Assembly: GCA_951406725.2 (NCBI GenBank)
Contig: OX597815.1
Location: 89,714,001 to 89,778,000, forward strand
DNA length: 64,000 nucleotides
From: Octopus vulgaris
Taxonomy: Eukaryota
Direction of reading: 5' to 3'
The position numbers and the translations under genes were made by a program. Of this stretch, positions 12,967 through 64,000 are shown piece after piece; the first letter of the stretch is position 1; each line of letters begins with the position of its first letter. The notes beneath the pieces were generated by a model that made no database searches, was not told the origin of the DNA, and saw only the letters and a list, made by a program, of their open reading frames with translations.

Positions 12967-13196
12967 CACACACACTCACACACATATAGTGTTGGTTCTG
13001 GGAAGAATCATTCTCTTTTAGCCCTTATAATTTAAAACACAAGGAGACAGTGGTACACACAAACATGGAAACACACACAAACACACACATAAAAACACAC
13101 AAACACATGAATTACATACAAACGTACATCCATACATACATATATACATACGCACACACACACACATACACATGCATACGCACACTTACACGCATG

Positions 13197-13234
<38 letters not shown>

Positions 13235-13497
13235 CAAACATGTGTATGCACACACACACTGACCGACACACATGCGCACAAACAAACAGAAAGAAAGCTG
13301 CTTGAATAATGGACAGAGTCAATAACTGTTGAAAAGGTTGCAAGACGCAACGAAAATTTTAGAAAAATAAATAAGTAAATGAGTGGAAATTTAACCGGTG
13401 AGTGTTTTATATTATAAGGTGCTAAAAGAGAATGACTCTACTCAGACACAACAGAATATGCTTCAACACACGAACTTACATAAAGAGTTCAAAGACG

Positions 13498-27912: not shown

Positions 27913-28699
27913 AATATTTTACGATGCCTCATATGATCTGATATGCTCACAATTCAAATGGGCGTCCAATGCATCATATCATTAGTAGCAATGTAAAGGT
28001 TTCTAATTGCTTTGGCATTCTTTTAACTGTTGGATGTTACATTTGCAGTCACACAATGAAACTGTAACATCAAACATATATTTTTTATTGTTATTCTCAT
28101 ACTTCCCATATCTCTGCCTTTCCAAAATAACTTCTTATATTGAACTCTCTGATTTCCTTCTATTTAACTATCTCATATCGCCTCTGATTATGGGATAAGT
28201 TTTATATCTCTTAAACAGCTGTGAGACTACCTTTCTCTTTATAAATGTCCTAGAAATCTCACACTAACTTGCCTTTGCTGTCTCATTTTATTCAACATAT
28301 ACACGCTGACACACAACCCGCATTACACTCCACAGGGAGTCTAACAGCGGTCTTTCCGTAGCACTAACATAGCCTTAATTGCCTTTTGGGTCTTCTGTAT
28401 ACCAAAACCTCTCATATCACCACAGCAAGGTGGCTGTTCCATGTTACTACTACTTTACCCTCAAGCAGCTCTTCAGCCAGCTGGTTATCGGTGCAGCACT
28501 ACACCCTGTACGTATATATTGCCATCAAGGGAATGAAGCCCTACCATCGTCCAGCAGACGACAGGACCACTGATCTGCCTGGTGTTGAACTAGTAGTAAC
28601 ATGGAACAGCCACTTTGATATGGCGATTAACATTACTTATTAATGTAGCTACTGCTCTCATAGGTTCTTGAGATTTTACAGCCAGCGACTTTACTCATA

Positions 28700-37116: not shown

Positions 37117-37160
<44 letters not shown>

Positions 37161-37194
37161 GGAGTTAAACGCATGTTTCATTCAAATCGTTTTA

Positions 37195-37280
37195 CTTCCG
37201 ACATATTTCCAAGAGAATATTGCTATTTTTCCAGAAGGAATAAAGCGGTTTAAAACAATGCAATCTTCTCATCAGGGAAA
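37195..37280 (-). ncRNA. Type I hammerhead ribozyme motif (PLE terminal repeat, left copy)
   Basis: Minus strand reads TTCC-CTGATGA-GAAGA...TCTTG-GAAA-TATG-TC-GGAA, with a GUC cleavage triplet and helix I TTCC/GGAA. Confidence 0.7.
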
Positions 37281-38228
37281 TAAAGAAACCAAACACATCA
37301 ATAAGAAATTTTAATAGAATATAGATGACTGAGTATATGATGAAGGGAACGCTAGCAAGGTTTTATTTAAAAAAAAAACATTAGTAGATATAAGGGCAAA
37401 ATAGTTTATAGAAAGCGAAGGAGAAGAAAGAAAGAAATTAGCAGTGGAGAGATATAGAGTAATAGATGAATAGGAATAAAGCTTAAAGGCTTGGAAGTAG
37501 ATATATATATATATATATAGTAGAAGTGAAATGTAAGTGGAAGTGACAGTCAAAGGTCGAATTTTATAGAATGGTAGAAATCATTTATAGGAACAAAAAT
37601 TTTTTTTTCGAATGTTTGCAACGATAAACGTGTTTACAACAGGATTCTCTGAAAACAGGGTGAAATATATTTCATCATTGCAAAGCAGACAAAAAGATTT
37701 ACCTTTATTATATGGAAAAGATATAGATTGAATATTCCATTCCAAATCAAACTGTTTATTATGATAATTTAAATACCAAATTAATTTACGAAGCCCAGTA
37801 TTGTTAAGTTTATTGATATGTCTAAATGTAGATTAATGATTAGATATTCTTTTGGACAACTGAGATGACGTCAGGACTGTAAGTAAATTTACATTGATAA
37901 ATAGAGTTTCTCGTCTTAGAATTACTGCTAAGGAAACGAATGCGATTGAAATCAACATCAGAGACACTGACACCGCTGCTATTATTATTTAAAGAATGGT
38001 TAGTGTTAATAAAATCAATTTGCAATGATGAAACGTATTTCATCCTGCTCTCAGAGAATCCTCTTGTAAATACGTTTATAAGCACTGCTAATTTCTTTCT
38101 CCTCTTTCTCTTTCTATAAAGTACTTACAAACGGTTTTTTAAAAAATAAACTTGCCAGCGTTCCCTTCATCATATACGCAGTCATTACATTCTGTTAAAA
38201 TGTCTTATTGATGTGTTTGGTTTCTTTA

Positions 38229-38316
38229 TTTCCCTGATGAGAAGATTGCTTTGTTTTATGCCATTTTATTCCTTCTGGAATAATACCAGTGTTTTCTTCG
38301 AAACATATGTTAGAAG
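38229..38316 (+). ncRNA. Type I hammerhead ribozyme motif (PLE terminal repeat, right copy)
   Basis: TTTCC-CTGATGA(38234)-GAAGA...TCTTC-GAAA(38300)-CATATG-TT-AGAAG, with a palindromic helix III. Confidence 0.7.
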
Positions 38317-38602
38317 TAAAAATATTTGAATAACACCTGCGTGAAACTCCATTTATTTATTTATCTATATATACACAAAAACATTTCACCAAAACCTGGA
38401 ATTTCTACCTTTATACGTAGGCTGTTGCATCCTTGGTACTTGTGTCAACTTTTGCTGCCTGGTAACTATTTGTTTACTTTTTCCGTGCTATTTGTAAACA
38501 TTGAAATTACACACACATGCGCGCGCGCACACAGATACAGATACACACACACTCGCACATACACACGCGCACGCACGCACACATACATACACGCACACAC
38601 AC

Positions 38603-41150: not shown

Positions 41151-41749
41151 AGTGGAACATTGTTTGAGTAAATATCATTTTTCAACTTGTAGCCTCCAAT
41201 ATTGATTCTTAAATACTTAATTTAGTTCCTGTAGCTGATAACTGTTCTTCTGACTAACTTAGATAACCGTTTCCGGTGTCTTACAAACAGCCCGTAATAT
41301 ATTACATTATTATCTGTCAGTCTGTCTGTCTGTCTCTTTCTCTCTATGAATCAGAGTCTCTATATCTTTATTTATCTCACATAAGTGCACTCATACATAA
41401 AACATGTTCAAAATCATACACTCAGCATTATATACTTCATCATTATATACATCATCACTATATACATCATCACTAAAATCTAATCAAAATTTTCGCGCAG
41501 TTATGACGTCATGTAATTGTGTTTGACTTTCTGAACTCCTACATAATATTAAATTTCTACCCAAAACTTTATGGCTTAATTAAAGTACAAGTTTTATAGT
41601 TTCTTCAAGAAGAAAAATATCGGGCTACGAAACTGTCTCTAAGCTTTGTACATCAAATGAATGTTAGTGAATTACAAATAAGTGATTGTACAAGGTACGA
41701 GGTAGTACGTAAGATATATATATTGGTACTTTAAAATTAGGAATAAGAA

Positions 41750-42470
41750 ATATTAGTAAAAAGAAATGTTAACTTATCTGCATGGTAATTTTCTCTCCAT
41801 GAATTAAACATGGCTACAAGCAATCATATAAACCGACTTTTACTTATTTCAAAATATTTTTAAATGTTTTAAAATTATGTTGAGCAATTTAGTTTACCTA
41901 TTTACCGACCTAGAAATTTATTACTTATCGAAGTTAACATAAATAAAATAAAGAAAAAAGACTATTCCCATCATACACTCACTTCTGGCTTCCCCTGATT
42001 TATTATTATAAATAGTAGAAAATACCTTTTAAGAACTTTTAAATCTTAATAAGAATTATCTCCCTTACAAAGTTGCTCTCAATTTTGGATTATACGATTG
42101 CTGGTAGCCATGTTAAATTTATGGAGAGAAAATTACCATACAGATAAGTTAACATTTCTTTTTACAAACATTTCTTTAATCTACTTTTTTTCCACATTTC
42201 CGTTCATTATTTACTAAAGTAAAATTATTCCAACAACTTCTAGTTATGTAATTTTAGCTTGCCATGTCTTTATATAGGATGTAAATAGCAAAATAATTTC
42301 ATATAAGATAGACCTGAAGATTGGCAATATAATCGTTTTAATATGGTATTTTTTTTAGAGACATTCTATTTCAGCAATATCGAGGAATATGTTGTCATGA
42401 AACGCGCGTAGTCTATATAATGTAAAGTAGATGATTTGAAATAAGAATTGAAGGTATTAATTTTGATATT
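41750..42470 (+). mobile_element. PLE 3' remnant with partial inverted terminal repeat
   Basis: 41756-41832 (AAAAAGAAATGTTAACTTATCTGCATGGTAATTTTCTCTCCAT...) is the near reverse complement of 42088-42165. PYKVALNF.GLYDC resembles the GIY-YIG end, and an HHR lies downstream. Confidence 0.6.
42308..42416 (+). ncRNA. Type I hammerhead ribozyme motif with intact core
   Basis: ATAGAC-CTGAAGA(42314)-TTGGCAA...TTGTCAT-GAAA(42399)-CGCGCG-TA-GTCTAT. Perfect 6-bp helix I, GUA cleavage triplet, palindromic helix III, long loop 2. Confidence 0.8.
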
Positions 42471-48199: not shown

Positions 48200-48206
<7 letters not shown>

Positions 48207-49720
48207 AACAAGAAATTTAAAAAGGAAATTACACACACTTTACATAGTTTCGCTTTAGCTATTCATGATATTAAGGTTTATAAATTTGAATACGTACTTT
48301 TTTATGAAGAAATTTTTGTCCATGTTGTGTGTAATGATACTTACGAGTGAATGACTTCACAATTAGAAAAATAAGTGGAGGTAATTGGTTATCGTTATTA
48401 TTATTGTTGCTGTTGTTGTTGTTGTTGTTTAGACATCATGATAAAAGTCAACAATTATATCATAACTGACATCTGTTATAAACCAACTGACTCAAAACAA
48501 AATCTCTTTAGCCCTTGCTACCCGAAACACATCAAGATAAATATCCGTTTCAATTTAGCAAAAAGGATTTGCTCAATAGTGTCTATTAGAACAACGCGGG
48601 ACCTTCGTTTTCAAGACTTCAAAACAACGCTTACTGAAAGACAATATCCACCCTCACTTATAAACGAGGTAATTAAACGTGCCCCAAAATTAGACGTAAA
48701 AACACTAAGAACAACAAAACATAACACCACACCTCATGTCAAAACTACTATTTATATCAACACACAGCCCCAGAAACAGTGAGGCATTTAGCAATATGGT
48801 GCATAATCTTCCTTTACTAACTACAGATCCTAAAATGAGCGACATCCTGAAAACACGCAAGCCCAACAAATGCAAAAAGCAACACAAATCGCTAAAGAGA
48901 CTACTAACAAATGCGAAGCTTTACAAAACAATCACGAAACCAACGGTTAAAAATGTGGACAGCCAAGCTGTGGAACCTGCCTCAACTTACTTGAAGGCTC
49001 GGTTTACCTTTTCAAACAAGGACAGAGGTTCACAATTAAAACTAGTTTCACTTATGCCTCTGAGAACCTAATTTATGAAATAACCTGCTCGGGTTGCGGT
49101 CAAAACTATAATGAGAGACGAGTATGAACCTGAGAAAGAGAACTACTCTACATAAAGATCAAATCCGTTTCCCGCATACAATCAAATTCTTTCAGGGAAC
49201 ATATAGAAAAATGTGCAGATAGCATCAAACCTAATTGCACAGTCTTCCCCTTCTACCAGTGCAAATACACTATCTCTCCACAAGAACGTTTATATAAAGA
49301 AACTTTTTTCGTTGAAAAATACAGAACACGTCTTAATATGCACGTACAACCAACTTTTATCTTTTTACATATTTCAGTTCACGATTACATCACTATACAT
49401 AAATCCCCTCACTAAACACGTTTTTCGAAACCTTTTTTTTTTGTGTGTGTGTATACACATATATACCCTCACCTTACCGAAACCGAACAGTTATCTACCT
49501 TTATTTTTCTACTTACCCTTATTTTTTTACTTGTGAAGTCATTCACTCGTAAATGTTAAAACACACAACATGGATAAAAATTTCTTAAGAAAATACATAT
49601 TCAAATAGGTAAACCATAATATCATGAATAGTGAAAGTGAAACCGGTCCATATATTACAAAGTTTATTAAAAATGTAAAGTTTGTGTATTTTCCTTTTTT
49701 TAATTTCTTATATATATTAC
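48200..49720 (+). mobile_element. 5'-truncated PLE (RT thumb, linker, GIY-YIG; frameshifted) with inverted terminal repeat
   Basis: LDIMIKVNNYIITDICYKPTDSKQ..PCYPKHIKINIRFNLAKRICSIVS...YPPSLI, then CGQPSCGTC..FTYASENLIYEITCSGCGQNY. 48200-48390 is the near reverse complement of 49490-49715 (TTACGAGTGAATGACTTCACAA / TTGTGAAGTCATTCACTCGTAA). Confidence 0.88.
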
Positions 49721-50403: not shown

Positions 50404-52095
50404 ATTGTGGCTGCTCCCTCGTTATCGAGTATGGCCATTGCACGAAGCTTAACTGTTACTGGTGCTGTGATCGAATGTGACTTTTTAGCCCAGCTAAAGA
50501 TCTACAATGTCTTGTACAGAATTGGCAACTAAAAATTTACCGGTAATAGCCGGCTGTATTTGTAACTGGGCTTCATGTACCTTTGCATGTCGTTTAAGTC
50601 CTCTCCTCATGCTGAATTACACTCTCTTCCACATGCCCGGCAGATATGATTTGTATGATGTGTTACACCAAACCAGTGACCAGGTTGTCACTCATCTGTC
50701 TCGCTTTATGACTACGAAGATGACTGTTGAGTCCAGCTTTACTGAGGCATGGTCTTGCACAGACATTGCATGTCAGCATCAGAGGAAGACCCTTCCCATC
50801 TGGAAGTGTAACAGCGATGCCCTTCCTGACATCCCTCCTTACTTTCTCATGTGCAACTCAAGATTTCTCAAAAGTGGCTGTCTTCTCGTGCACAATCCTT
50901 CTCCATCTGCTACGATCAATAGCTATGTCTTCCCATGTGTCAGGAGAGATGCAAGCATCTCTTAAGGAAGCCTTCTGCGAGTCCTTATACCTCCTTTTTG
51001 GTTTATGTGGAGGTCGTTCTCCTTTAGCTACCTCTCCATAAAAAAGTTGTTTTGGCATCCTTGAATCCTTCATCCTGACCAGATGACCATTCCATCTGAG
51101 CCTTTGCTTTAACACAAGAGCTTCTATACTTTCACACCGAGAGCCTTCCAATATTTCAAGATGCAGTCTTTCCGCTTAATGCCATAGATCCGTCTGAGGC
51201 ACATCTGATGGAAACGTTCCAGTTGTTTAAGGTGGTATCGATATGTGACCCATGTTTCGCAGGCATAGAGAAAAGAAGGGGGCACACATGGCTTGTACAC
51301 CGTTATCTTTGTTTTTCTGCATATGTCTCGCCGACTCCAGAGGCGCTTTTCTAGCCTTCCGAAAGCAACACTTGCTTTCCTAATTCTATATGGAATTTCA
51401 TCATCCAAATTGCTATATCTATTAATAGTGCTTCTGAAGTAGACAAACTGATCAACTAAATCACGTCGTTTACCGTACACATAGATATTTGGTACACTAT
51501 ACTGCTTACCAGGGGCAGGTTGATGCATGTCAACAGTTTTCTTGAGATTGACTGTCAATCCTAAGGCAGTGCAAGCATCAGATAATGTATTCAAAATGTG
51601 TTGCATATCAATCTCTGTGTGTGCTACTAGCTCACAATCATCTGCATACAAAAGGTATCTTATGATAGAGGTAAATACCTTTGTTTTGCAGCAAGGCGCC
51701 CGATATTAAATATGCTGCCAGAGGTTCGTTAATGGACGTAAACACTGTATCTGCAGTTTCTGAATGCAATACAGAACACCATCGCAAAATATATGGAAAA
51801 TAGGGTCGGTGCCAGAATATCCCCCTGTTTCACTCTATTTTGTATTGAAATGGGCTCCGACATTTTTCCTCTAACATTAACCCTACCATTCATGTCTTTA
51901 TGAAAAGACCTAACCAAAGTTATGAACTTTTCAGGGCACCCAAGTTTCTGGAGGACTTTCCACAATGCTTTTCTATTGACAGTATCAAAGGCTTTTGTCA
52001 GATCGACAAAAACCTGATACAAATCCATAATTTGTTCCACACACTTCTCCTGAAGCTGTCTAGCTGAAAAGATCATATCAGCAGTACCACGTCCC
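50404..52095 (-). mobile_element. RTE-clade LINE, 5'-truncated ORF2 (RT) pseudogene with intact 3' end
   Basis: GRGTADMIFSARQLQEKC..FVDLTKAFDTVNR..VKQGDILAPTLFS, YADDCELVAH..GLTVNLKKT, LRWNGHLVRMKDSRMPKQLFYGE, and a terminal CRSLAGLKSHIRSQH zinc finger followed by a short 3' UTR. Confidence 0.92.
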
Positions 52096-52139
52096 ACATA
52101 AATACATACATACATACATACATAATACAAACATACGTA

Positions 52140-52940
52140 GAGGGTCCGAAGGGTAAATTGTTGCCATTTTATAATTACAATTTTGCGCATCCGCAGTTGG
52201 GCACCATCTGTGAGAAAAGCAGCACCATAATGCAATTCACTCTACCAGAAATTTGGAAACGACATGATGTACTGTTCGGCATTTGTGCCCGAATCTCCAA
52301 TACGAATAATTCAGCGTGTTTCCGTTTCAATCTGAGAACAGTGCAATCTGAGGATATGTACCGAGAGTGATAAAAATCAATCATCCAGTCAACATCATGT
52401 TGTTTGGAGTTATCACTTATGATGGTGACGTTATGCCTCCAGCCATCTTCTCACATGGCCTCAGAGTCAACACGGAGGCCTGCATCAAAGTGCATAATGT
52501 AGATAGTGCTGCCCTGGGTCAAGACGGTGGCTACTGGAATACCCGATATCTCGCAACAAAACTTTGCCCCATGCCACACAAGAAAGAGAACCCGGTCGTG
52601 ACTGTCAGACAATTTCTGGGGCTACATCAACCCAACCATCTGGCCACCTAACGCCTCAGACTACAACCCCTCAATTATTATGTGTGGGTTGAGGTGAAAG
52701 ATAGATTAACCAAACTCCTTGCAACACCAAAGATGAACTGAAGGCAACTTAAACAAGGAGACCGTCCGGAAGAGTTGCAGGAGAATCCGAAGTCGTCTAG
52801 AAGCCGTGGTTGAATAAATTTACTCTTTAGTATTACGAGATATTTTTATATCATTTTGTTAAATGTAGTATTTAAAATGCGATGTCAGTGTTATCTTCAT
52901 TTTTGCGTAATTTATACGACCGTTTATTCACTGCACCCTT
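52140..52940 (+). mobile_element. Internally deleted Tc1/mariner-superfamily (maT-like) DNA transposon
   Basis: HPVNIMLFGVITYDGDVMPP..FSHGLRVNTEA, APCHT and IWPPNASDYNPLNYYVW (~WPPxSPDxNPLDY). Imperfect TIRs AGGGT...TAAA and TTTA...ACCCT with TA flanks. Confidence 0.78.
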
Positions 52941-56011: not shown

Positions 56012-58069
56012 TTTATTTCATAAAATTTGTCATCATAGACAGTACAAAGAGTGTGTAGCTTTGCGGGCTGGACAAACACATTAATGAATGAAAATGAAAT
56101 AGAATGAATAAATGAGAGACCCGCCGATTGGATATTTCTCGAAAACATATTTTCTTTTTTTAAAAAATCAATATGAGGTTTCAAACCTCTTACAAGAAGG
56201 AGGCACTAAAACCTCTTACTTAACATGTTTTTTTTTAAACACACAATTGAGGTTATAAACCACTACAAATAATACAATAAGATGAGGTTTCAAACCCTAT
56301 AACGAGGGTCTTTCACCTCCTACTCTTCGATATATCCATCAATATATTCATCATTATCTTCAATTCCGCTTGAGTTCCCGTATTCAGCCATTTCCCATGC
56401 CTCACTCATGTAGGACATGTAAGTCGTGTAAGGGCCACCCTGCCATATGCGACACTCCTCCCCAAATCCTTTAAGTATTTCCCACAAGGGAAACCTTATG
56501 ACCTCCAAAGCTATCTGCGGAGGCCATTCGGGATCCCGTGTGAAGGGCATATCTACTGTCTCTTTATGTTCTTCTACTATTTTTTCCACCTCCCCGCCCT
56601 TATAGAAAAATATAATTAATTGATCATCTTTAAGGGTGGGGGTGGTTTCTTCCACCGTGGGTAGCACAACTTCGGGACATACAGACGTCACATCATCTCC
56701 CCGCTGATATGAGCCGTTCTTCCTTCTTTTTTTTCTTTTCTTCCTGACTTCGGGAGTGTGGAGCTCTTCCGCTTTGTCCGGAGACTCTCCCCCGCCTTCC
56801 GAAGCCTTGGGTTCCTTCGGCGGGCAACTAGTGTTGCTTGCCTTCTTCCTTTTTAATCCTTTTTGAGTTGAGGAGGCTGAAGCCCCCTCGACCACATCCA
56901 CCTCTCCCTTTGACCGGGTAGGGGAGGTGGCATCTAGTGACTGTTCCAGGACCTTACCATGGTCCTGGGGGCAGTTTCTTTTAATGTGGCCTGGCTGCAG
57001 GCACGAGTGACACTTGGGGGGACGTCCCTCAAGTATCACCGGATACCTGCAGCCATCCATTTTCAAGAAATCTGGAGAAACCAGATCTGTTGCGGCTGAT
57101 GGGGTCCACATGGTCAAAATTGCTTTTGACCCTTCCCAATCGACCGCCGGCAATACCCTTACATTTAAGAGCCTGGGCCCGCCATCCCCCAGTCCCCGTC
57201 GGATGGTATATTCAATCCAATCCGCTTCGGTGTCTGGGGGCAACCCACATACCCAGGCTCTTATTAATTTCCTCCTGCAATATGAACAGAATTTCCTTGC
57301 CTTCTAAAGGCTGACTCGCAAACTGGCGAGCCTTTTCCCCGTTGTCAAACAGCAACCATACGGTTGCATGTTTGACACCACGGGATATATATTTTAAAGA
57401 GGACAAATAGTCTTTAAGTTCATTTCTTATAACTTGTTTTGGGTAGACGGAGATGGAATTAAGAACTTTAGAATAAGTTCTAAGCACCACCGTCTTCTCC
57501 TCCATATCTTTTAACCACTGCTTAGGCGGGTTAATTTCCCACTCTAAGGCAGAGTTTTTCTTTTTAAGTTCCTTCTCTGCCATGTCAAAAAACAGTTCAA
57601 AAGTAATTCAAAAGACAGTCTGCCAAAAAATTAAGTCGAATAAAAATAAAACAAAATAAAAGAGGAGGGAAGGAAACTGAAATTAAAGTAATGAAAAGAA
57701 TGAACCAAAATTTAGAAAGAAAGAAAAAATAGAAGTGAAAAGTAAAAGAAAAACCTCACAAATAGCACAGACAGGGAATCCTTTGTATAATACTCCAAAA
57801 AGGTAATCCAAATGGCTTATTCTTGAAGTTCGGAAAATTTGTACTTTTTCTGGCGTGATACGCCCACTAGTATTTACAAAAATAATTTTCAAGACAAAAT
57901 TCTCAATTCACCCTTACGGTGATAAGATCCCAGTATTTTGCTAGCTATAGCGAGCCATAATTAACAATTTTCTTTTTGTTATTTTTTCTATTCACGTAGC
58001 CCAAAAAATCTCACATCTTGTCACTGTAACATTCCAGACCAACTAGTGTTGCATTCTGAGTAACCGGAA
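56012..58069 (-). mobile_element. Non-autonomous ORF1-only retroelement (half-LINE/HAL1-like) with 13-bp TSD
   Basis: TSD GTAAGCAAGCTAC at 55999-56011 and 58070-58082. On the minus strand: ~490-nt 5' UTR starting TTCCGGTT, a single ORF1-like gene, and a ~300-nt 3' UTR ending in AATAAA. No endonuclease or RT. Confidence 0.8.
56320..57583 (-). pseudogene. L1/Tx1-type ORF1/gag-like protein (RRM-like region plus CCHC zinc knuckle), ~420 aa, one frameshift near 57283
   Basis: ORF 57583-57212 (VVLRTYS..VWLLFDNGEKARQFASQPL) joins ORF 57243-56320 (RAWVCGLPPD..YPVILEGRPPKCHSCLQPGHIKRNCP, a CX2CX4HX4C knuckle). Basic tail KKRKKRRK and acidic C-terminus. Confidence 0.8.
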
Positions 58070-58547: not shown

Positions 58548-59154
58548 TGAAAAAAGATATACCCTTACATTTTCATATTATTGTGAGTTGAGCGTAGCGA
58601 ACAAATCCCCAAACTGATAAATTTGTTGTAGAAAGAACATGGTATAAACCTTACAAGGGTGGGGGTAGTACATTTATAGAAGTTATTATAAAAATGAAAA
58701 TAGAAATAAACGATAAGATATGGTAATAAAAAATATATATCTCTAAAGTATAATTAAGTATCACATAAAAGTAACTGTGAATGTTGTTATATGAATGTAG
58801 GTAGTAATATATTGCGTCTAGTTATTAATATTATAAAGTAAATAGTATTTTAATTAATGCTATCGTAAAATAATATAGAATCGAATAGTTAGTAGGCAAA
58901 TGAGAATTTGTTATTGCGCAAATATAAACATAAATTTACACGCATATGCATAGTAAATATAAATAATTGTGGGTAAAAGACGTATTGAAAAATTTGTGGA
59001 AAATTAATATATATATGTATATATATATATATCTATATATATATATATATATATATAACGGGAAGCTTTATGAAAATAGAGAAAAGACGAAGGCAGGTGG
59101 AAAACAAACAAACAATTGTATTAGTATGGCGCTCAGGAAATATAAATAAAACAA

Positions 59155-59193
59155 GTCTTTAACGTTTCGAGCCTACGCTCTTCAACAGAAAGA
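59155..59193 (-). ncRNA. Ultra-minimal hammerhead-like motif in PLE terminal repeat
   Basis: Minus strand reads TCTTT-CTGTTGA-A-GAGC(GTAG)GCTC-GAAA-CG-TT-AAAGA. Core A6 is U, and helix III is reduced to the palindrome AACGTT. Confidence 0.55.
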
Positions 59194-59361
59194 TACACAG
59201 AGAGAAAAAAACACAGAAAGAAGGAGAGAAAAAAAATGCGTGCAGTAACTAACGAATCAACATGGCGATCTGATTTCGGCCAGAGGTCAAAGATCAAACA
59301 TGAGACGCGAGAGCGAAATAAGGGGAGATAATAGGGTTGATAATAGGGTTGAATGACCAGC

Positions 59362-59712
59362 TATTAGTGCGCAGGAGGGGTCTGGACGTGTGTATGTATA
59401 GGGTTGGTGTATGTATTAGTATGTATTAGTATGTATAAGGGCGTGTGTGTGTGTGTGTGTGTGTATGAGAGAGTATTAGTGCGTAGGATAGGTCTGGACG
59501 TGCGTATGTATGGGGTTGGTGTATGTATTAGTATGTATTAGTATGTATTAGTACGTATTAGTATGTATAAGTGTGTGTGTGTGTGTATGAGAGAATATAA
59601 GTGCGTATGAGGGGTCTGGACGTGTGTATGTATAGGGTTGGTGTATGTATTAGTATGTATTAGTATGTATTAGTACGTATTAGTATGTATTAGTTGGTGT
59701 ATGTATTAGTAT
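59362..59712. repeat. Three ~110-125 bp tandem units with nested 10-bp TAGTATGTAT repeats in the PLE 3' region
   Basis: GGTCTGGACGTGYGTATGTATRGGGTTGGTGTATGTATTAGT occurs three times. Confidence 0.85.
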
Positions 59713-60754
59713 GGCACATCATATATGATGTGATGTGTAAAGTCGTGTGGTGTAGTGAGGAGAAGAGGGGGGAGAAGGGGAGGGGTAGGAGAGGGGGAAG
59801 AGGAAAGGAGGGGGGATAGAGGAGGGGAGAAGGAAGGGGAGGGGAGGGGGAAGAAGGGGGAAAGAGGGAGAGGGAGAGAGAGAAGGGGAGTGAGGGAGCA
59901 GAGGGAAGGGGAAGAGGGAAGGAGGGAGGGAGGGAGAAAGAGGGAAGAAGGGAAGGGGAGTAGGGGTGAAAGGATGAAGGACTGAAGAAGTAGGGGTCGG
60001 GGGGAAGGATAGGTGAGGAGGGGGAGAGGGGGTTAGATGAGGAGGGGGGAGAGTTGAGACCAAATGGCGTATAAGAGCGAAGAGAGAAGATTAATTCCTG
60101 TTCACGGCGCAAACGGGAATCCGGATGGCCTCTGTGTAAGAACAAACCGAACACAGATAGGTGTTGCAAGGAGTGACCGGTGGAGCGGAAATGGCGTGAG
60201 ACCGGTGTGTCGTTCGCAAGGTGGATGTCATGAAGGTGTTCCGCGAACCGGTCAGCCAAGCGGCGTCCCGTTTGTCCGATGTACAAGGAATTGCAGAGAG
60301 AGCAAGAGACGCAATAGATAATATTACTGGAGGTGCAGGTGAAGGAGTGGATGATGGGATAGGGTCGATGGTGGGTGCTAGTGAGGCGGGTGGTGTTGGA
60401 GAGGTAAGGGCAAGTGCGGCAACGTGGGCGGGAGCAGGGGAACGAGCCGGGTTGGGAGGTAGGGTCAGGGAAGGAGCTATGGACCAAAAGGTCTCGAAGG
60501 TTGTGGGCTCGTTTGAAAGAGGGGAGGGGTCGGTTAGGGAAGAGGTGTGAAGTGGACGGGTCGGACTGGAGATGACGGAAAGCTCGAAGAATGGTGCGTT
60601 GGAGACGTAGGGTCGTGGGGTGGTAAGTGAGGAGAAAAGGGAGGCGGGAGACTACAGGGCGGGTTCGGGGAGAGAGAGCAGATACACGGTCCACGGATCG
60701 TGCTCTGGCAAGGGCGGTGTGGATAGTGGATATATGTATATATATCGAACTCAC
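59690..60754 (-). CDS. PLE linker plus GIY-YIG endonuclease (real coding part ~60050-60730, 5'-truncated; Pro/Ser tail is low-complexity read-through)
   Basis: RLPFLLTYHP..FPNRPLPSFKRAHNLRDLLV..PCSRPRCRTC..FTCTSSNIIYCVSCSLCNSLYIGQTGRRLADRFAEH..VSRHF..RLRREQELIFSLRSYTPFGLN. Confidence 0.85.
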   Translation of the reverse strand: MSSIYIHISTIHTALARARSVDRVSALSPRTRPVVSRLPFLLTYHPTTLRLQRTILRAFRHLQSDPSTSHLFPNRPLPSFKRAHNLRDLLVHSSFPDPTSQPGSFPCSRPRCRTCPYLSNTTRLTSTHHRPYPIIHSFTCTSSNIIYCVSCSLCNSLYIGQTGRRLADRFAEHLHDIHLANDTPVSRHFRSTGHSLQHLSVFGLFLHRGHPDSRLRREQELIFSLRSYTPFGLNSPPSSSNPLSPSSPILPPDPYFFSPSSFHPYSPSLLPSFSLPPSFPLPLPSAPSLPFSLSLSLFPPSSPSPPLPSPLLYPPSFPLPPLLPLPFSPLFSSLHHTTLHITSYMMCHTNTYTN

Positions 60755-61008
60755 TACTTCATCATTGTGAACTCGACTCTCTAATTACTGGGTCATGCGC
60801 CTTTACAACCTGTATGTATGTATATATATATATATATATTTATATGAGGTATATTTGGCATCACAATATGTCTAACCATTAAGGGTGGGTGTTACTGTAC
60901 CTTGTAGCACCAGGAGAACATCTCCTCCAGCTGGCTATAGGCACACTTTCTGTGCACTATCGGTATTTGCAAAGGAAGGTCATCCTTCCCTCGTCAACCT
61001 AAGTGATA

Positions 61009-61053
61009 CGCACGGACTGCAGTTTCTGGGAATTGACCCGTCATCAGCGTATG
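61009..61053 (-). ncRNA. Minimal type I hammerhead ribozyme (left arm)
   Basis: Minus strand reads CATACG-CTGATGA-CGGG(TCAATT)CCCA-GAAA-CTGCAG-TC-CGTGCG, with a GUC triplet. Confidence 0.78.
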
Positions 61054-61068
61054 ACAATCACCGGTTTT

Positions 61069-61113
61069 CGTACGCTGATGACGGGTCAATACCCAGAAAC
61101 TGCAGTTCGTGCG
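61069..61113 (+). ncRNA. Minimal type I hammerhead ribozyme (right arm)
   Basis: CGTACG-CTGATGA(61075)-CGGGT(CAAT)ACCCA-GAAA(61096)-CTGCAG-TT-CGTGCG, with a 6-bp helix I (one GU) and a GUU triplet. Confidence 0.78.
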
Positions 61114-61325
61114 TATCACTTAGGCTGACGAGGGAAGGATGACCTCCCTTTGCAAATACCGAGAGGGCACAGAAAGTGTGCCTATAACCAGCTAGAGGAG
61201 ATGTTCTCCTGGGGCTACAAGCTACAGTAACACCCACCCTTAATGGTTAGCCATATTGAGATGGCAAATATACCTCACATTGTCGTGCAGTTACTATTTA
61301 TATCTGGTTCAGAGATTTATTTTTG

Positions 61326-61393
<68 letters not shown>

Positions 61394-62899: not shown

Positions 62900-64000
62900 T
62901 GGATTTTTCCACATCTTTTCATTCATTACTAAAAAATCAAATTATGCAATGCACAGCTTCAAATTGCTATGTCTTCCATCTTAAATGTTCCTCAATCGTT
63001 CGCTCTTTTCAGCCATGCCACCAAAACGAAGACATTCTCATTTATCTCCACAAGCAAGAACCGCAAAGAAGACTGCTTCTATTCGTGCTCAATATAACTC
63101 ACTTCAGCGATGCCCAAATGTGTAATATTTCAAAACGATCACCAATGGCAGAAGTTCTCTAAACTACACATACTGTCTGGGATGAATGCACGATGGCACA
63201 CCGTGGTTTACTAGAAACCCCAGATAGAAACAATACGGCCGTTAGGGTGGGGGCTAAATGTTGTCCTCGCAAGGGATTTCCGCCAAATATTACCAGTCAT
63301 ACCAGAGTTTTCATCTCTGTGAAAGTTTGTTCGTCAGATTTCATTAAGCAGCAATATGCGAGCTCATCTCTGCAATTACTCTTTAGCTGAGGAATTCTTT
63401 CATCAAGTTCTGAAAATTAGAAATGGCGCCTTACTGTTGAATAATAATTTGCAACAGTAAGTACTACAATGTAGGCGCATGGTGTCTACATTGACCGAGC
63501 TTAAAGAAAAGGTATTTCCCACATTGCAAGACAACTTCAAATGAAATGTAATGAAAGCATTGATAAAGAAATCCATGAACTCCTCCACAATCTACCAGGA
63601 GATGCTTCAACGTCTGTCTACATTGATACTACCATCGACGAACATGCCACTATTGAGCATCCAGTTGAATTTCGCAATTCTCTACAATCCAAAGGACTGC
63701 CACCGCATTAGTTGTTCCTAAAGAAAGGTACACCTATCATGCTCTTGAGGGATTTCCACCCACCATGACTATGCAAAGGTACAACATTGACTGTAACAGC
63801 AACTATTATTGCTGGCTGTTATCGAGGAGAGATTGCATACATTTCACGCATGCCCCTTATTCCGTCAACTGTGTCATTTCAGTTAAAGCGCCTCCAGTTC
63901 CCAGTGCGATTGTGCTTCGTTATGACAATCAACAAAGCCCAGGGTCAAACTTTAAAAATAGTGGGTCTCAATTTACAAATACCCTACTTTTCTCATGGAC
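62900..64000 (+). mobile_element. Helitron Pif1-like helicase pseudogene (runs off window end)
   Basis: MCNISKRSPMAEVL..VWDECTMAH (Walker B), HPVEFRNSLQSKGLPPH*LFLKKGTPIMLLRD..LCKGT and RMPLIPS..KRLQFPVRLCFVMTINKAQGQTLKIVGLNL..FSHG. Confidence 0.88.

Follow-up and report, generated by a model that had tools for sequence, protein, structure and literature searches.

Penelope-like elements (PLEs) provide the closest parallels to the locus described here. Those bearing an endonuclease leave an inverted 5'-truncated copy, a tail on one side and a bias for microsatellites (PMC8557442), and a second account presents the same three traits as standard for these elements (PMC8969392). Among PLE junctions, the head-to-head type is reported as the most frequent (PMC3846280). 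With the Poseidon element PAc of Anolis, both target strands were cut and extended in vitro, two start sites of reverse transcription (RT) defined the tail, and unprocessed RNA was the dominant template (PMC11167929). In Schistosoma mansoni, dual minimal hammerheads lying on opposite strands ~100-700 bp apart were described in 2014 (PMC4209133), and retrozymes are presented as monomers or direct tandem units that stem from PLE ends (PMC7229834; bioRxiv 10.64898/2026.07.22.740005).

The window, the whole stretch of 64 kb that was analysed, contains a hairpin that shares with PLE insertions (PMC8557442; PMC3846280; PMC8969392) head-to-head arms, a tail at one end, a putative microsatellite target and a small palindrome at the junction. 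It differs from them in that each arm is reduced to the terminal repeat, no ORF is left and the tail reaches ~47 nt instead of 30-40. As in the hammerheads of PLE pLTRs (PMC4209133), its motifs form an opposite-strand pair in which the core is intact, a single nucleotide follows A9, helix III is short and palindromic and helix I has 4-6 bp; unlike the S. mansoni pairs, the cores are 28 nt apart and helix II shows at its base either a C.A mismatch or one additional A. The resemblance to PAc (PMC11167929) lies in two end points bounding the tail, a putative AT-rich target and copies running through an uncut hammerhead, but the PAc ORF starts in the hammerhead, whereas in the arms of the window every one of the three frames is interrupted by stops. 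Animal non-LTR retrozymes (PMC7229834; bioRxiv 10.64898/2026.07.22.740005) are likewise non-coding, with a type I hammerhead, a similar unit size and a proposed PLE origin, yet they are described as direct tandems or monomers and the arrangement here is inverted.

We estimate at about two in three the probability that the hairpin is a truncated Penelope-like insertion, in which both cut target strands primed RT on uncut RNA from one source copy. The locus offers a clean natural case for an open question on PLEs, namely how head-to-head arms and one-sided tails form. It appears to be one more PLE-type insertion, working as PLE insertions do, of a family that we could not find described: no publication on this repeat emerged from a search that did not extend to most subscription journals and repeat databases.

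The inverted repeat consists of two arms of 216 nt (60842-61057 and 61065-61280), 93% complementary and separated by 7 nt. Compared over their 216 nt, the arms differ by 16 substitutions and no indel; over 207 nt they differ by 13 substitutions (6.3%, ~3% per arm), also without indels. The minimum free energy (MFE) of the hairpin is -384 kcal/mol, compared with -141 +/- 6 in 100 shuffles, none of which was as good (z -42.7). These values bear out the near-perfect foldback seen in the initial annotation, and the ~440-base hairpin is confirmed as a genuine feature of the sequence. The absence of an ORF held equally well, the longest ATG-led frame within 60842-61327 being 28 aa and the longest stop-free stretch 88 codons. 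In both arms, the frame that opens at an ATG inside the hammerhead core closes after 16 codons. Small insertions in sister variants, seen unphased, might shift this frame.

The (TA)n tracts reported on both sides of the palindrome are indeed present, but the right one begins at 61328 rather than 61281, and the 47 nt between these positions are family sequence. From the sequence, the target microsatellite comprises a left part of (TA)n/(TGTA)n at 60811-60841 and a right part of (TA)n at 61328-61388. A target duplication is unreadable within (TA)n, and no empty site was seen.

The type I hammerhead descriptor combined CTGANGA, helix II, GAAA, helix III, UH and a helix I of at least 4 bp. It matched exactly twice in the 64-kb window, at +61075 and -61047, and on average 0.03 times (maximum 1) in each of 100 dinucleotide shuffles of the window. 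Two head-to-head motifs, one per arm, had been proposed in the initial annotation and are thereby recovered. The left motif (61009-61053, minus strand; descriptor match and constrained fold) has C3 at 61047, a GUC site and a predicted cut after 61015. The right one (61069-61113, plus strand; descriptor match and fold) has C3 at 61075, a GUU site and a predicted cut after 61107. Relaxing one core letter added a single match, the motif of a neighbouring element at -59188, and under looser criteria again 10 rows were obtained, mostly chance 3-bp helices. With Rfam, neither the whole window nor a 491-nt stretch matched any hammerhead model, the only matches being to AT-repeat and hairpin miRNA models, below threshold.

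The core positions C3-A9, G12-A15.1, U16.1 and H17 are present in both arms. Helix I comprises 4-6 bp, and helix III (CTGCAG) is self-complementary, two copies being predicted by folding to associate through it. At the base of helix II, where a G10.1-C11.1 pair next to G12 is expected, a C.A mismatch is found (or a G-C pair with an extra A); a U.U mismatch has been described at this place in an axolotl hammerhead (PMC7229834). The proposed minimal form was retained for the core, helix I and the palindromic helix III, but not for the G10.1-C11.1 pair. The retained parts agree with the minimal hammerheads described from PLE terminal repeats (PMC4209133; PMC6765202). Private changes have cost the left motif one helix II pair and given the right copy its GUU site, GUC accounting for 93-99.8% of family depth. 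A sister motif with the fourth helix II pair swapped and no extra A (one loose end, two contigs) lends weak support to helix II.

The folding energies of single motifs are no better than those of shuffles, and the MFE structure of the monomer is not a hammerhead fold, so that the hammerhead call rests on the descriptor and not on stability. Between the arms, the motif differs at 2/41 positions and the rest of the arm at 11/166 (p = 1.0). Among 40 of the 54 variant rows, those listed, none falls within 61067-61101, shallow places having been dropped first and the contigs being at least 80% alike. A change at position 61102, which accounts for 10-17% of family depth, disrupts the helix III palindrome on which dimer folding depends.

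To describe the family, four of 24 public runs were compared with the right arm and its flank at 80% likeness; the contigs are short and none spans the stretch, and their summed depth is not a copy number. Matching contigs numbered 4704, 3970, 1781 and 469, and all four runs thus show the hammerhead arm to be an abundant repeat family. No RNA data set was listed among the runs containing part of the stretch; the run with 469 contigs (X11) is only guessed to be RNA and was not used as evidence of expression. Part of the stretch was found in 20/24 runs, from nine studies and four organisms, and half or more of the words of the locus in 0/24. Scans with exact patterns gave 0 matches in metagenome contigs (two scans), prokaryote genomes and viral contigs.

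The copies of the family end in two zones, ~61273-61280 and ~61321-61327. Loose ends behind 61280 occur in 4/4 runs (at least 39, 44, 17 and 5 contigs), those behind 61321 are heterogeneous (at least 15 contigs in X7), and the depth at 61292-61300 amounts to 10-24% of that in the 61247-61255 bin. The inverted repeat and these loose ends delimit a right terminal-repeat copy at 61071-61280 (plus strand), starting 4 nt upstream of C3 and reaching the first end point. Beyond it, depth and loose ends outline a ~47-nt tail at 61281-61327 (plus strand), present on the right arm only and finishing near the second end point. The left copy (60842-61070, minus strand), delimited by the same kinds of evidence, has its 5' end at 61070, 23 nt upstream of C3, and a tail-less 3' end abutting (TA)n. 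Depth climbs 20- to 46-fold towards the 3' end of the family. Loose ends before 61132 and 61219 correspond to diverged sister variants, and the rise reflects 5' truncation only in part, because such subfamilies also drop out. Among the joints listed, no whole-unit direct tandem was seen, contigs showing presence and not absence. A foldback element of the MITE type, a DNA transposon that duplicates its TA target, would account for long terminal inverted repeats without an ORF and with TA on both sides; its ends would not be expected to be as unequal as the one-sided tail makes them, the family is mainly non-palindromic and the arms hold a hammerhead motif, which leaves this origin barely credible.

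The apex itself belongs to the family. Loose ends before 61068 (at least 22 contigs in X2 and 11 in X7) match the minus strand of the window from 61070 through the loop, and native upstream sequence is visible over only ~15-30 nt. Because other copies continue upstream with those letters, the loop is the native upstream of the left copy, the apex is asymmetric and the true head-to-head junction lies between 61070 and 61071. There, 2-of-3 microhomology is read from the sequence and may have served in joining. Folding and contigs show that the apex, 61052-61070, consists of this upstream sequence, with an imperfect 5-of-6-bp hairpin and a 7-nt loop. The gap of 7 nt agrees with the earlier impression of almost no spacer, but not with a neutral spacer, as the minus strand of 61052-61070 is the family's own.

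The depth of the apex bin was 0.22, 0.23, 0.06 and 0% of that of the core (ribozyme) bin in the four runs. Opposite-strand joints in other copies numbered five among the joints listed (one contig each, at 80% likeness), all with different breakpoints. Two of them, 61068/61183 and 61069/61122, are head to head by geometry. Unlike the joint of the window, those in other copies unite arms that differ widely in length. The palindrome with the apex of the window is not the unit of the family. We accordingly regard it as very improbable that the palindrome is itself the unit of a specialised non-autonomous ribozyme element. Such an element would agree with the lack of an ORF, with both arms beginning close to the hammerhead and with an apex depth above zero in 3/4 runs. 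This depth nonetheless never exceeds 0.23% of the core bin (an argument weakened somewhat as contigs under-represent perfect hairpins), native upstream continues in the contigs counted above, and other inversions lie elsewhere. In addition, both ribozymes are predicted to be buried and the hammerhead is no better conserved between the arms than the rest. Of the two possibilities first envisaged for the locus, an ORF-less derivative of a PLE with inverted pLTRs is the one supported; a distinct non-autonomous element with a fixed apex is not, given the rarity of that apex, the continuing upstream and the other joints.

The preferred reading, a truncated PLE insertion, can be described as a series of steps. 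The PLE endonuclease would cut both strands of the TA tract. One target end would prime at a first start point on the RNA (~61280, without tail), and the other at a second start point (~61327, with tail). Both cDNAs would pass the uncleaved hammerhead and halt 23 and ~4 nt past its core. The 3' end of the left cDNA would then anneal to the other cDNA through the 2-of-3 microhomology, repair would seal the palindrome, and the arms would decay neutrally. The foldback would be a by-product of insertion and not a self-copying unit. Two-strand priming, the two start points and joining by microhomology are proposed by analogy, the two-primer step having been demonstrated in vitro with a single Poseidon element, from a lizard. 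The locus displays several PLE features, including a type I hammerhead-like motif in the terminal repeat, an inverted 5'-truncated head-to-head copy, variable junctions and a one-sided tail. Against a PLE origin, the tail (~41-50 nt) exceeds the 30-40 bp of published cases, and no RT or GIY-YIG ORF is linked to the family over the short upstream visible. The odds are about even between a coding PLE and a short non-coding derivative as the source.

The extent of the two copies also bears on the template. They run 37 and 56 nt upstream of the predicted cut site, and the template was therefore not cut there. Both arms moreover carry an A at position 61243, where G makes up 98.4-99.4% of family depth, and this rare allele common to both points to a single source copy. 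Private changes have since accumulated on the right arm (61107, 61125, 61187, 61194) and on the left arm (at least 61091, 61251, 61259 and 61264, absent from the change counts of X1), which suggests one source copy followed by separate decay of the arms. The shared allele could also stem from later gene conversion between them. A fold-back chimera created during library preparation or assembly is a very remote prospect. The exact locus is found in 0/24 runs, and the changes are skewed towards transversions on the left (7/8) and transitions on the right (4/5; p = 0.03 post hoc, with one right-arm site polymorphic in the family), which would favour it. An artefact would not readily yield 13 substitutions in 207 nt without an indel, several sites where each arm retains the family base that the other has changed, and a tail on one arm only.

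Loop polarity, the side of the tail and the shared rare allele fit two-strand priming and exclude a simple snap-back of target-primed cDNA. Two other ways to produce the mirror half were weighed. In the first, still of PLE origin, it would come from self-priming of the antisense strand at the small native hairpin of the apex, a route put forward for the Penelope elements of rotifers (PMC3846280). A strand reading antisense arm, loop and sense arm does end its first part in the 5-of-6-bp hairpin, a single molecule accounts for the allele at 61243, and under the published model self-primed copying of a tailed antisense RNA would leave the sense arm as the tailed one, in line with the window. This route nevertheless appears unlikely. 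A target-primed cDNA, once folded back, would be extended along its own arm into the TA flank and could gain no family tail on the second arm; the antisense-RNA version requires a transcript that is hypothetical here; and the arms united in other copies are far from equal in length. In the second, one inserted copy would later have been duplicated in inverted orientation at the DNA level, by a snap-back during replication or repair. We consider this improbable: although it explains a single source allele and exploits the quasi-palindrome at the apex, it predicts the tail on the antisense arm preceding the loop, which is tail-less here, and requires that the left tail was additionally lost by an exact deletion. 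Comparable joints in other copies, and the two other insertions with inverted ends found in the window, also point to a property of these elements.

A further scenario for the family may be put forward tentatively. The family might be a short non-coding parasite of PLEs, abundant in several related species, whose copied RNA starts just upstream of the hammerhead with its non-standard base of helix II. PLE machinery would rebuild the mirror half at each insertion, and 5' ends would pile up at the edge of the ribozyme, giving near-symmetric, self-silencing double-hammerhead hairpins. Breakpoints of other copies at 61068-61069 make up 2/10 of those listed (0.18 expected in 4 nt, p = 0.013), a place that coincides with the boundary of the reference match. 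Should 5' ends indeed cluster at the hammerhead edge and the unusual helix II prove conserved, a testable handle on the role of these weak ribozymes would be provided by the family.

Folding predicts that either hammerhead is buried as it is made within a read-through RNA, and hence silenced by pairing. In the full plus-strand hairpin the probability of helix II is ~4e-15, and in both directions the antisense copy precedes the sense motif, which pairs while emerging. The initial annotation had placed a sense hammerhead within a dsRNA hairpin and suggested a folding switch; folding upholds the former, but as the antisense copy is always made first, burial works against the latter. Lying on opposite strands, the two motifs cannot form a dimer within a single transcript. 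Differences that break pairing amount to 12/13 on the plus strand and 9/13 on the minus strand, as in neutral decay, and nothing suggests selection for a switch or a duplex. Between the arms, no ADAR signature was seen (0/5 right-arm changes are A to G).

The palindrome lies beside a 5'-truncated PLE of a different family (59057-60742, minus strand) with a GIY-YIG remnant, whose Pfam match (E 0.0097) is below the curated cut-off and whose tblastn match to its relatives reaches E 2e-45. This neighbour has an upstream cysteine motif of Neptune/Nematis type, a long 3' region of polypyrimidine and tandem repeats, and a hammerhead-like motif with C3 at 59188 and U at core position 6. BLASTN of the palindrome against its end (59057-59320) found no similarity, in agreement with the earlier remark that no obvious sequence is shared with the adjacent terminal repeat, and a link between the two was rejected on this ground and on the different hammerhead. 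Protein searches with the neighbour endonuclease returned 30 and 5 relatives, none close (at most 55% identity over long matches), and none of the first 30 ends like the frame upstream of the palindrome hammerhead, in whose core the stop of an ORF might lie. Between the left (TA)n and the 5' end of the neighbour, 60747-60803 (minus strand) bears what we take to be a resemblance to a tRNA-derived SINE head broken at the B box; the search for tRNA genes found none.

The inverted-end architecture is thus common even locally, because two older insertions of this kind lie beside (TA)n in the same window. One (37157-37446 / 38083-38379) keeps CTGATGA in both arms, the remainder having decayed. A nested inverted repeat is seen at 37624-37684 / 38019-38079. 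The other, with inverted ends at ~48200-48383 / 49510-49715, shows the textbook inverted-copy structure of PLEs and encloses a PLE-like ORF remnant on the plus strand (within 48200-49715, E 3e-8); BLASTP of the neighbour's ORF against 48709-49068 found nothing.

The region is dense in dead mobile elements. LINE-type RT fragments (RVT_1), a gag-like zinc-knuckle ORF and what is presumably a decayed helicase-like stretch occur among 50858-52241, 56320-57607 (both minus strand) and 63400-64000 (plus strand). Short inverted repeats of 56-90 nt and 80-91% likeness are also present at 41745-42176, 28416-28627 and 12983-13460.
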